Shown one piece after another: positions 37,701 to 46,700 of a DNA stretch of 64,000 nt. Made by a program: the position numbers. The DNA lies in NCBI RefSeq assembly GCF_988242995.1, contig NZ_OZ547043.1; one strand, 5' to 3'. Position 1 is the first letter of the stretch; each line of letters begins with the position of its first letter.

Positions 37701-40700
37701 AACAGGGCCGTTGACTATTGATGAAGGTAACATTTTTTTAAAATAAACCTAGTTTAAGCAACAATCAGGGACAAAACAGACTATTGCATGACAAATTTCA
37801 CTGTCGCGATTTGCCCCACGTCATCCATCACCAGCAATTGATAATCGCCTTTATCCGTCAAATGCAGGGTCACGTTGCGCCCGCGTTCAGTTAACGGTTC
37901 GCCGTTTAGAAACCACCAGCGTTCACCTGCCCCTCCACTTGATTGCAACGGCAAAGTCGCTTCCGCTGCGCCCGGTAAACGTTTAATAATCGCGCCATCG
38001 CGAACACCTGTCAGCTGCAGTGGGAGTTGTGCATCGTGACCGTATGGCGGGCAAATTGTCGAGGCCGGTGGTAAGCGCACAGCGCGGCGTTCTGATGCGG
38101 GCAACCAGGGTTCCAGCGGTAGCGGCCAGACATTTATCATTTCTTGTCGCGCCTGAGGGCAATCAGCGGCAACACGTTTGCCGTTTTCATCCAGCCAGAT
38201 GGGGAAACGAATGCCATTAATGCCTTCCTGCTCCGGCAGTAATAGAGTTGGCGGCTGACTCCCGTCCAGCAGCCAGGTTGCCAGGCGGCGGCGACAGTTA
38301 CCGTCACCTTCCGGCAAAGACTGTCCGCCTGGCCAACAGATAACGCCACGAGTGACTGAGTTCGGGCGCGGGTCTTCCGGCAGATTCGCACTGCGCGACA
38401 GTAAGATATTATTGACCTGATTCAACAATGGTACGGCACTGGCAAAGCCAAACTGACCAACAACGGGCGTGCCGTCCGGTCTGCCAGTCCAGATCCCAAT
38501 AACATAGCGAGCGTTAACCCCAATCGCCCAGGCATCACGATAGCCATAGCTGGTGCCCGTTTTCCATGCCAGTGGGGCGACGCGCGGCAAGGCACTATCC
38601 GGTAAGGGTTGCGCTTCATCAGCCATAATCCGGCGAATGATCCACGCCGCCCCCGACGACATTAAAGGCCGTTCAAGCAGCGGATCGTCAGGCTGTAAGC
38701 GCAATTTACCTGCCTTGCCGTGGCGAGCAAACGCGGTATAGGCCGCCGCCATATCCCCCAGTTTTGCACCAGCGCCGCCGAGAATGAGCGAAAGATTCGG
38801 CGCAGCGCCGTTGGGCAGATACAACGGCAATCCAACATTGCGTAATTTTGCCGCAAACCGTTTCGGTCCATAGGCTTCCAGCACCTGCACAGCAGGTAAA
38901 TTCAGCGAGCGCACCAGCGCCTCGCTCATGCTGATCGGGCCATGAAAACCGCTATCAAAGTTACCTGGTCGATAATCACCGGTGCGCCGGGGAACGTCTT
39001 GCAGCAGTGATGCCGGGTGGATCAAGCCTTCATCCAGCGCCAGACCATAAACAAACGGTTTGAGCACCGATCCTGGCGATCGGATCGCATTGACCATATC
39101 AACATGACCAAAGCGTGAATCATCGTTGAGATCAACCGAACCCACCCAGCCGCGAACACGCATATCGGTATGATCAACCACGATCATCGCCAGTGAGCTG
39201 CGCGGTGGTAATCGTCCTTTCCAGTTTTGCGCCAGTTCTTCCAGACGTCGTTGAAGACCGGCATCCAGCGTCGTAACGATTTTGTCGCTTTTGCTTTTAC
39301 CGAGCATCATGCGCGAAAACAGCGGTGCCAGTTGCGGCATTTGTCGGGGGGCCAGCCAGATGGGTTCTTCCCTTGATTCTTTTACCTGCTCACGGGACCA
39401 CACACCTTGCGCAGCCATCCGTTCGAGCACTTTATTACGCGCGGCTTCGGCACGTTCCGGCCAGCGATCCGGGCGAAGACGGCTGGGCGCTTGCGGCAAC
39501 ACCGCCAGCATTGCCGCCTCGGAATAGCTTAAATTCGCAGGCGATTTTCCGAGATAAGCCCAACTTGCCGCACCGATCCCCTGCAACGTACCGCCAAACG
39601 GGGCACGGTTAAGATACAAGGTCAGAATTTCACGCTTAGACAGATGCCACTCCAGTTGCAACGCGCGCCAGAGCTGGCGAATTTTGCCGCCAAATGTTTT
39701 GGGGTGAGGATCAAGCAGACGAGCAACCTGCATAGTGAGCGTGCTGCCACCGGAAATAACCCGTCCCGAAGTGAGATCTTGCCATGCTGCGCGCGCCACC
39801 GAGAATGGATTCACCCCCGGATGCTTCCAGAACCAGCGATCTTCATAATTGATCAGCGCTTCAAGGTAACGTGGAGAAACATCTTCGATTGTTACCGGAT
39901 AACGCCAGATGCCTTCCGCATCGGCAAAGCGCCAGAGCGGCGTCCCATCCTGCGCCACAACCACTCGTGCGGGATTGACTTCATGCAGCGGTAGAGGCCA
40001 GAGTTTATCTGCTCCCCACGCTGCAAGAAAAAGGAGAAAGGGCGCAGCTGCCAGCGTTATCCAGCAGCCGCGTTTGGTTAACAGGCGAGGCATTTACGGT
40101 CTGACAATCAGCAGATCTTCAGCCGCGCCAGTCGCCCGCCATTGGGGAACATACATTGATTCCACCATCGGTTGCGGTACCTGATACGTTCCCGGCGTCA
40201 CCGCCCGCGCCAGATACACCAGCGTTACCGGTTGGTATTCATCAACGGCAACCGCCGCCACAAAGCGATCATCACGGAACTCAATGTGCTTAATGCTCGC
40301 CTGCTGCATCTGGTTCAGTAAGTTCTGCACTTCGCCACCACTTTGCTCCAGGCTGGCGCTACCGTTCGCCAGATTCTGGTTTTCCAGTTCCAGACCCGCA
40401 GGCAGCAGATCCACGACTAACGCATCCGGCACGCTGTTACTGGCTTTTACCTGCAACCAGACCAGCACCAGATCGCCGCTACGTAACGAGTCCAGCGATT
40501 TACTCTGACCATCAGTACCAAGAATATGACGCTCGATTTGCAGCACATTGTTCGCCGGTAAAGGTGCGGATTGCGGATAACCGCTGGCATCCACACGCAG
40601 CCATAACGGCTGATCGCCACTGTTGGTCACCTGCAAGGTGGCAAGTTGATCGCTATTCAGATTGCTGTTTAGCGTTTTCTCGCCTGTCAGCGGCTCAGCT

Positions 40701-43700: not shown

Positions 43701-46700
43701 AGTGGCCAGGTAAAGTGGTAGAGGCCATTCTCCGGCTGACTAACAACGCTCCTGAGTACCTGCCCGTCGGGTTTAATCACGTCTAACCTGATGGGTTGAT
43801 CGGGCAATGCTTTACCATCTGCATCACGCAGTAAACCATTGAGGATGACTGTTTCACCAGGGCGATAAAGATCGCGCGGGCCAAACATAAAAAACTGTTT
43901 GCTATAGCCTGGCGCGCCAGCAATGTTAAATTCTGCTAAGTCCAGCGCTGGAAGTTTTAAATCGAGTAGCGTTGTCTGACCGTCTTTACGCGCCAGCAGT
44001 AATGCCGCGTTTTTATCATTTTCCAGCTGCACATGCCCCTGAGCGTCACTGGTTGCCTGAGTCAGAGTCTGCCCTTTCTCATTTAATAAAGAGACTTCAA
44101 TTCCTTGCTGGGCCGCGCCGTTTTCCAGACTTTGGGTAAAGATATCCAGACGATTGTGATAACGGTGAGCTGAAACGCCGATATCACTTAACGTAAACAG
44201 CGTCGCGGGATTACTGTAATCGTAACGTCCAGCCTGATTCATCACAGCCAGATACACGCCCGCCTGCTGAAGCGGTTTGATATCGCCCAGCGGCAGCAAT
44301 AATTTTTCACGGGTATTACGCGCAGGATTGAGATCAAACCGTCCGGTGTAGACCAGATCCGCCATCTGCAGCAGTTTGTCTGACTGCCAGTTCGCCAGCG
44401 AATTGCGGTATTCCCATTGGCTAATGAATGCTGGCAGAGATTCTGGCTTAACGCGGAAGAAGTTAACATCGACATTATTAACGTTGAGCGCCATTACCGG
44501 CAGCCCTTCAACGACTTTGCCAGGCAGCAGCGAACCACGGCTGGCAAAACCGACGCTGGGTTGGATGTCGCGGGTAGTTATAGTTTTTTCATAATCTTTA
44601 CTGAAGGTTGCGTTGTTGAGTGCTTTGACTTCCTTGCCAATAGTAACGATCAAATCACGTTTCGGTTCGAGGTGGCGTAAACGCAACTCTTTAAGATTAT
44701 CTGACAGCTCCCAGGCACCATCCACTTTGCCGATTTTCTTATCGACGACATGGATAACGCGTGAGAAATCCTGATCCGGGTCGAGAGGAATGGAGAACGT
44801 CAGCACCAGCGTGGCTGCGCCATCAAGTTGAACTTCAGAGAGATCCAGCAATGTCAGCGCCTTACCGGCACTCTGTTGGGCCAGTTTTTGTCGCTCCGGC
44901 GCGGAAAGTTTTGCTGAACTCACGTTTTCTGAAGAGGCCGCTTTAGTAACTTCAGAAGGCGCATCTTTTTTCACCGCTGTTGGCGCGTTATCGTTGTTGT
45001 CGCACCCTGCCAGCGCCAGCATTAGCATGCAGGCGGCTACGCGTAACTTTTTCATTTTTCATCCCTGCCACAATGGCCCGTTAGCAACGTCGAATAATTA
45101 TTATGCGTGAGAATTTACGTTATGTAATTCAGTATCACGCCCATACAATCCGAATTTTAGTGAGAATTGTGGCTCAGACAGCCAAATCAGCCTCTTTTGC
45201 TTGTCGCCTTTCACTAAACATCCGACAATTTAGCCTAACCCCGGCAAAAATGGAGATGCCTATGTCCACGACATGGTTTGTAGGAGCCGACTGGCTCGCC
45301 GAACATATTGATGACCCGGAAATTCAGATTATCGATGCCCGCATGGCGTCGCCTGGACAGGAAGATCGTAACGTTGCTCAGGAGTATCTGAATGGACATA
45401 TTCCCGGCGCAGTGTTTTTTGATATAGAAGCGCTTTCTGATCACACTTCCCCGCTTCCACACATGCTGCCGCGCCCGGAAACGTTCGCCGTGGCGATGCG
45501 TGAATTAGGCGTTAACCAGGATAAGCACCTGATTGTCTATGACGAAGGTAATCTTTTCTCAGCCCCACGAGCATGGTGGATGCTGCGCACCTTTGGTGTA
45601 GAGAAAGTGTCGATTCTGGGTGGTGGACTTGCAGGCTGGCAGCGTGATGATCTGCTATTAGAAGAAGGCGCAGTAGAACTGCCGGAAGGAGAGTTTAACG
45701 CCGCGTTTAATCCTGAAGCCGTGGTGAAAGTCACCGATGTGTTATTGGCAAGCCATGAAAATACGGCGCAAATTATCGATGCCCGCCCGGCTGCACGTTT
45801 TAACGCAGAAGTTGATGAACCTCGCCCAGGTTTACGTCGCGGACATATTCCCGGTGCATTGAACGTTCCGTGGACGGAACTGGTGCGCGAAGGCGAACTA
45901 AAAACGACCGATGAACTGGATGCGATATTTTTTGGTCGCGGCGTCAGCTATGACAAACCGATTATCGTCAGCTGCGGCTCTGGTGTAACGGCAGCCGTGG
46001 TTTTGTTGGCACTCGCGACACTTGATGTGCCAAACGTGAAACTGTACGACGGCGCATGGAGTGAATGGGGCGCACGAGCAGATTTACCGGTTGAGCCCGT
46101 AAAATAAGCTTTTTACAGGCAATAAAAAACCGCCGAATTTGGCGGTTTTTTATTGCTGGTCTGGTTCGCGGCCTTTCCAGCAGGTTGTATTACTGCAAGT
46201 GTATCTCGTCAACTCAATACTCGCTTTATGCATCAACGATGTCAAGTAGATAAAAAAGATAGATTTTGAATTCATTTGGCTTATCAGTCCGAATTCAGAC
46301 AAATATAAACAAATCCCGCTTAATATTAAAATATACTAACTGGTAAAAGATATTAGTTAAACGTGTAACTTCACTTTCTTTAAACAACAAAAAACCGCCA
46401 AAATCAGGCGGTTTTTTGTTGCTGGTCCGGTTCGCGGCCTTTCCAGCAGGTTGTATTACCGTAGTAATGCAAGCGCGTCTCAGCGGAGACAATACTCGCC
46501 AGTAACCCTCTTTTTGTCAAGCAAAAGAGAGTTATTATTGTTCTGTTAGTGTATTATCCACTGCGGCCCTTTCCGCCGTCTCGCAAGCGGGCGCTGGCTT
46601 AAGGAAAGGATGTTCCGCGACCGTTAGAGCAAGCGCGTCTCAGCGCTTGCTATCGCGGCAATATCGCCAGTGGTGCTGTCGTGATGCGGTCTTCGCATGG

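Follow-up and report, generated by a model that had tools for sequence, protein, structure and literature searches.

An apparently canonical yfhM-pbpC operon with an intact thioester motif and an abutting stop/start junction in Escherichia coli

The best-described counterparts of the locus analyzed here are yfhM and pbpC of Escherichia coli K-12, whose mechanism and organization have been treated in several papers (PMC4498604, PMC3328433, PMC5764988, PMC9181621, PMC9918453) and which have been called an operon (PMC4498604, PMC5764988). YfhM (ECAM), a bacterial alpha-2-macroglobulin (A2M), has a signal peptide and a lipoprotein box (Neves 2012, PMC3328433). Covalent capture of proteases through its thioester has been demonstrated for both K-12 and BL21 ECAM (PMC3328433, PMC9918453); the protein is a monomer that acts by covalent tethering and steric hindrance, as a “snap-trap,” with no closed cage (PMC9181621). 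The bait region of K-12 ECAM is cut by elastase (PMC4498604) and comprises a disordered, cleaved part (Arg923-Leu942) and a segment that rebinds after cleavage (Phe947-Asn963) (Fyfe 2015, PMC4498604). The thioester is formed by Cys1187 and Gln1190 and shielded by Tyr1183 and Tyr1185; Met1634 and Tyr1635 complete a hydrophobic pocket around it, and an RDDR motif touches the thioester domain or, once the protein is activated, the cleaved bait (PMC4498604). The view of YfhM and PBP1C as a defence/repair pair is hypothetical and, according to later papers, goes back to Budd et al. 2004 (PMC4498604, PMC3328433, PMC5764988). PBP1C is without a known role in laboratory conditions, and a host-related one was still termed speculation in a 2020 review (PMC7554673).

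We analyzed a stretch of 64,000 nucleotides (the window) from contig NZ_OZ547043.1 of RefSeq assembly GCF_988242995.1. The original prediction, made from the DNA alone, placed an A2M homologue and PBP1c between positions 37781 and 45055, the stop codon of the first followed immediately by the ATG of the second. Every part of this was upheld: those limits are exactly the outer ends of the two coding sequences (Table 1), and both the ORF list and the minus-strand sequence (...GTC AGA CCG TAA ATG CCT CGC..., with the stop at 40096-40094 and the ATG at 40093-40091) leave zero bases between genes that occupy one common reading frame. The identity of YfhM rests on eleven A2M-family Pfam domains, each above its gathering score and in the expected order (bMG1-3, MG2, bMG5-6, bait-region domain, A2M, thioester domain, CUB, bMG10), and on alignment along its entire length with three ECAM structures, PDB 4RTD (residues 23 to 1653), 4ZIQ, and 5A42. 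The K-12 counterpart gene is annotated in RefSeq as yfhM, alpha2-macroglobulin. An NCBIfam scan of YfhM returned no family, but against such overwhelming Pfam and PDB matches we do not read this blank as pointing to anything new. PbpC exceeds the curated cut-offs of both PBP1C equivalogs in NCBIfam (NF008414, 1566 bits against 1121; TIGR02073, 918 bits against 494).

Table 1. Positions of the genes, protein motifs, and regulatory-type matches of the yfhM-pbpC locus within the window
Feature	Position	Strand	Description and basis
Weak sigma-70-like promoter match, ATTACA-17-CATAAT, 9/12	45100..45128	-	yfhM-sseA divergent spacer; consensus scan
SD-like AGGGA	45062-45066	-	Ahead of yfhM; sequence
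yfhM CDS	40094..45055	-	1653 aa + TAA; type I bacterial alpha-2-macroglobulin (ECAM); ORF list, Pfam, PDB
Predicted lipoprotein signal peptide, MKKLRVAACMLMLALAGC	45002..45055	-	Lipobox LAGC, Cys18, then Asp19; identical to K-12
Bait region, residues 923-963, RYGADIYDIYGQVIEGQGRLAALRFGGDGDELKRGGKPPVN	42167..42289	-	Residues 915-968 identical to K-12
YPYGCLEQ, residues 1183-1190	41486..41509	-	Thioester Cys1187 and Gln1190, shielding Tyr1183 and Tyr1185
RDDR motif, residues 1594-1597	40265..40276	-	C-terminal MG domain; identical to K-12
ESMY motif, residues 1632-1635	40151..40162	-	Motif search and direct sequence reading
TAA/ATG junction	40091..40096	-	yfhM stop abuts pbpC start; sequence read
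pbpC CDS	37781..40093	-	770 aa + stop; penicillin-binding protein 1C, class A PBP; ORF list, Pfam, NCBIfam
PbpC EDRWFWKHPG, residues 84-93	39815..39844	-	Glycosyltransferase motif; motif search
PbpC SVLK (SxxK), residues 342-345	39059..39070	-	Transpeptidase motif; motif search
PbpC SLN, residues 396-398	38900-38908	-	Transpeptidase companion motif; motif search
PbpC KTG, residues 511-513	38555-38563	-	Transpeptidase companion motif; motif search

We identify the locus with high confidence as an intact allele of the canonical E. coli yfhM-pbpC operon. It is ordinary, being complete and having the layout that almost all other E. coli share. As in K-12, yfhM lies between sseA and pbpC. It is found, annotated as yfhM and pbpC, in 5425 of 5426 complete E. 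coli genomes. The junction is identical in K-12, natural isolate SC418, E. albertii, and Citrobacter, and the same or nearly the same forms occur across E. albertii, Citrobacter, Enterobacter, Superficieibacter, and Pseudescherichia; given its recurrence in the first four and the presence of the pair in the complete genomes, the abutting arrangement is not due to chance. Beyond these, a YPYGCLEQ DNA pattern retrieved 120 loci from other species, 71 of them informative (at least 1200 nt downstream). In 50 of these, a PbpC homologue followed directly downstream in the same orientation; 25 to 30 of the linked cases had overlapping genes or a gap of at most 30 nt. The other 21 (~30%) had no pbpC anywhere in the fetched stretch, so the partnership is not obligatory. 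Two further kinds of feature were considered between 37781 and 45055 and set aside: a hidden noncoding element, since searching the entire window against Rfam with gathering thresholds gave no match there, and opposite-strand ORFs, which we treat as spurious because they lie inside coding sequences under purifying selection.

PbpC has the Pfam domains Transgly (3.2e-52), Transpeptidase (1.5e-11), and BiPBP_C (PF06832, residues 687 to 767, 1.3e-17), the last of which separates PBP1C from PBP1A and PBP1B. Its EDRWFWKHPG we take to be the GT51 catalytic-glutamate motif of class A PBPs. The transpeptidase domain is kept in both fold and motifs (SxxK, SxN, KTG); the RefSeq product name mentions a glycosyltransferase only. 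A PDB sequence search found no experimental structure of PBP1C, the best match being PBP1A (4OON, 190 bits). As a separate observation, the K-12-like E. coli strain NCTC9100 has kept yfhM and lost pbpC together with ndk.

The N terminus of YfhM, MKKLRVAACMLMLALAGC followed by D, equals the K-12 sequence and offers the putative lipobox cysteine expected of a type I A2M; Asp at +2 may act as an inner-membrane retention signal. On the reading we favor, YfhM would be exported to the periplasmic face of the inner membrane and held there by a lipid anchor. Cleavage of the exposed bait (residues ~923 to 963) by a protease would free a segment that pushes the C-terminal MG domain off the thioester domain, and the Cys1187-Gln1190 thioester thus uncovered would react with a surface lysine of the protease, leaving it covalently tethered and sterically blocked. 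PbpC, a class A PBP anchored in the membrane, has a peptidoglycan glycosyltransferase domain; it would be co-transcribed with yfhM and translated by re-initiation after it. That the two proteins jointly “inhibit the protease, repair the wall” is a hypothesis; nothing in our analysis contradicts this classical model, and ECAM inhibits mammalian proteases in vitro (PMC4498604, PMC3328433). A functional pair with some other joint role is possible, although we lean against it: for example, PBP1C may contribute further glycosyltransferase activity when LD-transpeptidases build the wall under envelope stress, and YfhM may control endogenous or competitor proteases. Such a role would suit the only reported PBP1C-linked phenotype, the restoration of labelling with NADA (a fluorescent D-amino acid) in a PBP1b-deficient strain by overproduced PBP1C plus LdtD (PMC6131605). 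It would likewise suit the standing of the defence/repair model as speculation (PMC7554673) and the presence of the linkage in free-living environmental bacteria (Hymenobacter, Myxococcales, and Poribacteria).

We infer that yfhM and pbpC are co-expressed from one shared transcript: they lie on the same strand, with no intergenic DNA to hold a terminator or promoter. Promoter and terminator scans can neither prove a single transcript nor exclude an internal promoter, because their counts equal those of shuffled sequence (promoter-like, 6 versus 6.0 expected; terminator-like, 13 versus 9.7); with 6 sites in the whole scan against 6.0 from shuffles, the match in the yfhM-sseA spacer is no evidence on its own. 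It is improbable that the two genes are adjacent and yet independently expressed, with pbpC served by a promoter in the 3' part of yfhM and by its own initiation signals, in which case little could be concluded on co-expression from the abutting stop and start. An RpoE-holoenzyme binding peak within yfhM in a genomic SELEX list (PMC5493296) favors such independence, as does the spacing of 400 to 750 nt between the A2M and pbpC genes of Pseudomonas and Hymenobacter, by which tight coupling is not universal. Yet pbpC here has neither intergenic space nor a Shine-Dalgarno sequence ahead of it, the sigma-70 consensus scan (itself weak evidence) found no minus-strand promoter-like site inside yfhM, tight or overlapping junctions recur in many phyla, and published work regards the two genes as an operon (PMC4498604, PMC5764988).

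Translation of pbpC probably hinges on ribosomes that finish yfhM. The anti-Shine-Dalgarno pairing energy upstream of pbpC is +0.4 kcal/mol, compared with -6.0 for yfhM and -7.1 for ndk, and is weaker than that of ~96% of in-frame windows inside yfhM. With no Shine-Dalgarno sequence and an ATG directly after the yfhM stop, re-initiation is the most likely route. The stricter proposal, that pbpC is translated by no ribosomes other than those that stop at the TAA of yfhM and begin again on the adjoining ATG, is tentative and on balance doubtful; it draws on the missing Shine-Dalgarno sequence, on the placement of the junction in a predicted stem, and on the keeping of a tight, Shine-Dalgarno-poor junction in other Enterobacteriaceae. 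If true, exclusive restart would set PBP1C output at a low, fixed proportion of YfhM and place it beside YfhM at the inner membrane, which would favor the physical YfhM-PBP1C complex proposed by Neves et al. Still more speculatively, since a single TAA is all that parts the two in-frame ORFs, a YfhM-PbpC fusion could arise through rare readthrough. Naturally fused A2M-PBP1C proteins were also considered and rejected: among the 89 other-species loci whose A2M stop lay inside the fetched stretch, none was a fused ORF, and the distance from CLEQ to stop never exceeded 546 codons.

The original prediction further held that the CLEQ signature is intact and the protein predicted to be trap-competent, and named a mutated thioester Cys or Gln, on precise alignment, as the finding that would overturn this. 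In the alignment with K-12, Cys1187, Gln1190, and the bait are unchanged, as are all of the thioester-pocket residues (Y1183, Y1185, M1634, Y1635). The single CLEQ of YfhM (residues 1187 to 1190; codons TGT CTT GAG CAA, window 41497-41486) stands at the same position and in the same context (KAYPYGCLEQTASG) as in K-12, and no such mutation is present in this allele. Over their full 1653 residues the two YfhM proteins are 98.4% identical, from which thioester formation and covalent capture by the YfhM of the window are expected; trap competence of this allele is thus a prediction from sequence identity. The 26 substitutions cluster in the N-terminal linker (45 to 66), in residues 867 to 888, and in residues 1385 to 1517. 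The lipobox, the bait region (923 to 963), Y1183/Y1185, RDDR, and ESMY are free of them, the substitution nearest to the bait being V969A. PbpC differs from its K-12 counterpart by 6 substitutions. Purifying selection on both genes is indicated by dN/dS values of 0.087 (versus K-12) and 0.044 (versus SC418) for yfhM and of 0.044 and 0.078, respectively, for pbpC. That substitutions elsewhere impair this motif-intact allele, so that it might not be trap-competent, is very improbable: the 26 differences from K-12 do include R804P, A1072P, S1385P, Q1455P, and the reverse P1091Q, and 10 of them crowd into residues 1385 to 1517 (the CUB and MG10 region), but dN/dS is 0.04 to 0.09, only 9 differences separate this YfhM from that of SC418, every residue named as important in the structural papers is unchanged, and there are no frameshifts or premature stops.

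Publications from 2004 to 2015 already cover the gene pair and its linkage, the operon, the thioester mechanism, the structures, and the proposal of “defence plus repair.” The locus therefore matters little past its correct annotation and gives no new leverage on whether YfhM and PBP1C act together; the minor additions made here are the want of a ribosome-binding site of pbpC's own, the tight junction across phyla, and the loss of pbpC in NCTC9100.

Among known systems, K-12 YfhM/ECAM (PDB 4RTD, 4ZIQ, 4ZIU, and 5A42) is identical in the lipobox, bait, CLEQ 1187-1190, tyrosines, RDDR, and ESMY; its 26 differences are conservative to moderate, and none has a known functional role. K-12 PBP1C (NF008414, TIGR02073), also of 770 residues, shares the domains, catalytic motifs, and abutting junction, with no notable difference. 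The Salmonella enterica protein SaA2M (PDB 4U48, 4U4J, and 4U59), an orthologue from another genus that is 82% identical to ECAM (PMC4498604), is likewise type I, with the same 13-domain plan and YPYGCLEQ context; 4U48 aligns with the YfhM of the window over its full length (3054 bits), its numbering shifted by 8 so that Tyr1175/Tyr1177 correspond to YfhM Tyr1183/Tyr1185. Type II bacterial A2Ms (P. aeruginosa MagD and the E. coli YfaS class) are also periplasmic, multi-MG-domain, protease-trapping proteins with a bait region, but they have neither the CXEQ thioester nor the lipobox cysteine and belong to a six-gene mag operon away from pbpC (PMC3735191, PMC5764988); CLEQ, the lipobox, and the adjoining pbpC make the YfhM of the window type I. 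With the human alpha-2-macroglobulin/complement C3 superfamily, YfhM has in common the MG domains, the bait region, and the CxEQ thioester domain, and its sequence gives weak but significant matches to 6TAV, 7VON, 8CEM, and CD109. Human alpha-2-macroglobulin is secreted and, as a tetramer, encloses its prey in a cage like a “Venus flytrap,” whereas ECAM, monomeric and anchored in the membrane, tethers the protease and keeps out large substrates only (PMC9181621).

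The original prediction placed the yfhM stop codon directly against the pbpC ATG, and both the ORF list and the junction sequence bore this out exactly at 37781-45055. No base separates the two minus-strand ORFs, which lie in a common reading frame. The junction reads, on the minus strand, ...ATT GTC AGA CCG TAA ATG CCT CGC CTG..., with TAA ATG therefore setting the pbpC start immediately 3' of the yfhM stop. Gene order around the locus matched that of K-12: rodZ, rlmN, ndk, pbpC, yfhM, divergent sseA, timP/ryfA, sseB, and pepB.

Coordinates of the yfhM-pbpC pair and its junction
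Feature	Position	Strand	Basis
yfhM	40094..45055	minus	ORF list, 1653 aa
pbpC	37781..40093	minus	ORF list, 770 aa
yfhM stop codon	40096-40094	minus	direct sequence reading
pbpC ATG	40093-40091	minus	direct sequence reading

All but one of the 5426 complete E. coli genomes (5425) carry the 7.5-kb yfhM-pbpC stretch at 96-98.6% identity, chromosomal in every case and annotated as yfhM and pbpC. The K-12-like strain NCTC9100 (locus 4689-10981) encodes a YfhM identical to that of K-12 but has yfhM directly after rlmN, ndk and pbpC having been deleted, and thus offers a natural or laboratory pbpC-less background. G+C content was 56.6% for pbpC, 53.0% for yfhM, and 51.6% for the whole window; the higher value in pbpC fits an old proposal that the pair was horizontally acquired. 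Next to yfhM, the mechanical ORF at 45103-46107 (+; 334 aa) over-extends sseA, for which the RefSeq start (about window position 45262) gives 281 aa and a divergent yfhM-sseA spacer of about 206 bp.

YfhM carried, above cut-offs, the Pfam domains bMG1, A2M_bMG2, bMG3, MG2, bMG5, bMG6, bait-region, A2M, thioester, CUB, and bMG10, and aligned end to end with the solved structures of E. coli YfhM (ECAM; 4RTD, 4ZIQ, and 5A42) and of Salmonella SaA2M (4U48). The thioester motif had been called intact: a single CLEQ lies in the protein, at residues 1187-1190 (window 41497-41486; context KAYPYGCLEQTASG), and precise alignment revealed no mutation of Cys1187 or Gln1190. Relative to the K-12 derivative J53, yfhM has 115 nucleotide changes in 4962 nt and 26 substitutions in its protein (98.4% identity to the K-12 protein), pbpC has 57 in 2313 nt and 6 substitutions, and neither gene contained an indel. 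None of the 26 changes fell in the signal peptide and lipobox (MKKLRVAACMLMLALAGC followed by D) or in residues 915-968. That span takes in the bait region, whose Arg923-Leu942 part is disordered and is where cleavage occurs, and whose Phe947-Asn963 part rebinds afterwards. Also unchanged were Tyr1183 and Tyr1185, RDDR at 1594, and ESMY at 1632 with its Met1634 and Tyr1635; the roles of all these features are those described by Fyfe et al. 2015 (PMC4498604).

PbpC has Transgly, Transpeptidase, and BiPBP_C domains and scores over the curated cut-offs of the NCBIfam PbpC equivalogs NF008414 (1566 versus 1121 bits) and TIGR02073 (918 versus 494 bits). It retained EDRWFWKHPG (84-93), SVLK (342), SLN (396), and KTG (511). 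A PDB sequence search found no solved PBP1C structure, the best match being PBP1A 4OON (190 bits, mainly over the glycosyltransferase domain). Values of dN/dS were 0.087 against K-12 and 0.044 against SC418 for yfhM, and 0.044 and 0.078, respectively, for pbpC, values that place both under purifying selection.

The 22 nt preceding the pbpC ATG paired with the anti-Shine-Dalgarno (SD) sequence at +0.4 kcal/mol, versus -6.0 for yfhM and -7.1 for ndk; about 96% of in-frame windows within yfhM pair more strongly, and the junction sits inside a predicted stem. The pbpC start is thus SD-less and apparently coupled to yfhM translation: ribosomes terminating at yfhM would re-initiate at the pbpC ATG. 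Scanning for consensus promoters gave nothing on the minus strand within yfhM, a weak match 5' of it (45128-45100), and a good match for ndk 3' of pbpC (37717-37689); total counts equaled the shuffled expectation, so the scan counts as weak evidence.

Scanning one genome per species for DNA encoding YPYGCLEQ yielded at least 120 loci, those listed spanning Enterobacteriaceae, Pseudomonas, Bacteroidota, Myxococcota, Verrucomicrobiota, Lentisphaerota, Spirochaetota, Synergistota, Planctomycetota, and others. Among the matches listed, the A2M stop codon fell inside the fetched stretch in 89, and linkage was counted on the 71 with at least 1200 nt downstream. In 50 of these 71 the A2M gene is followed directly, in the same orientation, by a PbpC homologue, with overlap, abutment, or a gap of at most 30 nt in 25-30 of the 50, depending on start codon choice; the 21 unlinked loci had no PbpC-like gene anywhere in the fetched stretch. 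A genome has only a handful of class A PBP genes, so linkage this frequent greatly exceeds what chance would give. The TAAATG junction recurred in E. albertii and two Citrobacter genomes, and a 1-nt spacer occurred in Enterobacter, Superficieibacter, and Pseudescherichia, all SD-poor; gaps were 400-750 nt in Pseudomonas and Hymenobacter. Both the linked and the unlinked loci agree with the description of A2M and pbpC genes as "often" juxtaposed (PMC3328433).

No near-identical counterpart of the whole window was found among complete E. coli genomes. Best matches differed by segment: chicken strain DG341-1 for 1-25000 (98.9%), the sediment strain SC418 for 37700-45200 (98.6%), and ST2747 strains for 45000-64000 (99.2%). 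The source belongs to an under-sampled lineage or else is a recombinant mosaic. At least 80% of 1-25000 was covered in only 1357 of 5426 complete genomes. Within that segment, 11426-12017 (minus) comprises an IS200C-like transposase ORF between yfgI and guaA, matched to the DG341-1 RefSeq annotation, and beside it an Rfam STnc490 match (11894-12017, 146 bits). An adhesin island (16792-28194, minus) adjoins xseA. Its products are a protein of 2680 aa that has InvE_AD and BIg21 repeats, 9 of each, another of 325 aa encoded where DG341-1 has a SinI-family gene, and a 735-aa inverse autotransporter (IAT_beta). The sseA-sseB spacer, where K-12 RefSeq has the small toxin gene timP, contains plus-strand Rfam matches to the IS128 sRNA (46253-46431, 163 bits) and ryfA (46563-46867, 313 bits). 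A marginal AaHKsRNA22 match (49115-49187, plus; 45.3 bits, gathering score 39.8) falls within the long minus-strand ORF 47761-49278 (pepB by gene order) and is probably due to chance or composition.

The yfhM-pbpC locus is real, intact, and was rightly interpreted; it is also a textbook locus, already published in full. Passages of PMC4498604, PMC3328433, and PMC5764988 credit the linkage and the defence/repair hypothesis to Budd et al. 2004 and the CLEQ thioester and protease capture to Doan and Gettins 2008, and ECAM and SaA2M structures are in the PDB. The joint defence/repair function is a hypothesis, and the sole reported PBP1C phenotype comes from overproduction together with LdtD (PMC6131605). 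What this analysis adds is small and limited to two points: a pbpC start that is SD-less and apparently coupled, and a new count of tight-junction conservation.

In ECAM, once the disordered bait is cleaved, part of the chain comes free and docks onto the C-terminal MG domain, dislodging it from the thioester domain. The thioester domain then swings by about 36 Å, and the Cys1187-Gln1190 thioester is stripped of its hydrophobic cover (PMC4498604). The 98.4% identity and unchanged key residues suggest that the YfhM encoded here works likewise, by the "snap-trap" in which covalent tethering and steric hindrance inhibit proteases chiefly against large substrates, in contrast to the cage formed by tetrameric human A2M (PMC9181621).
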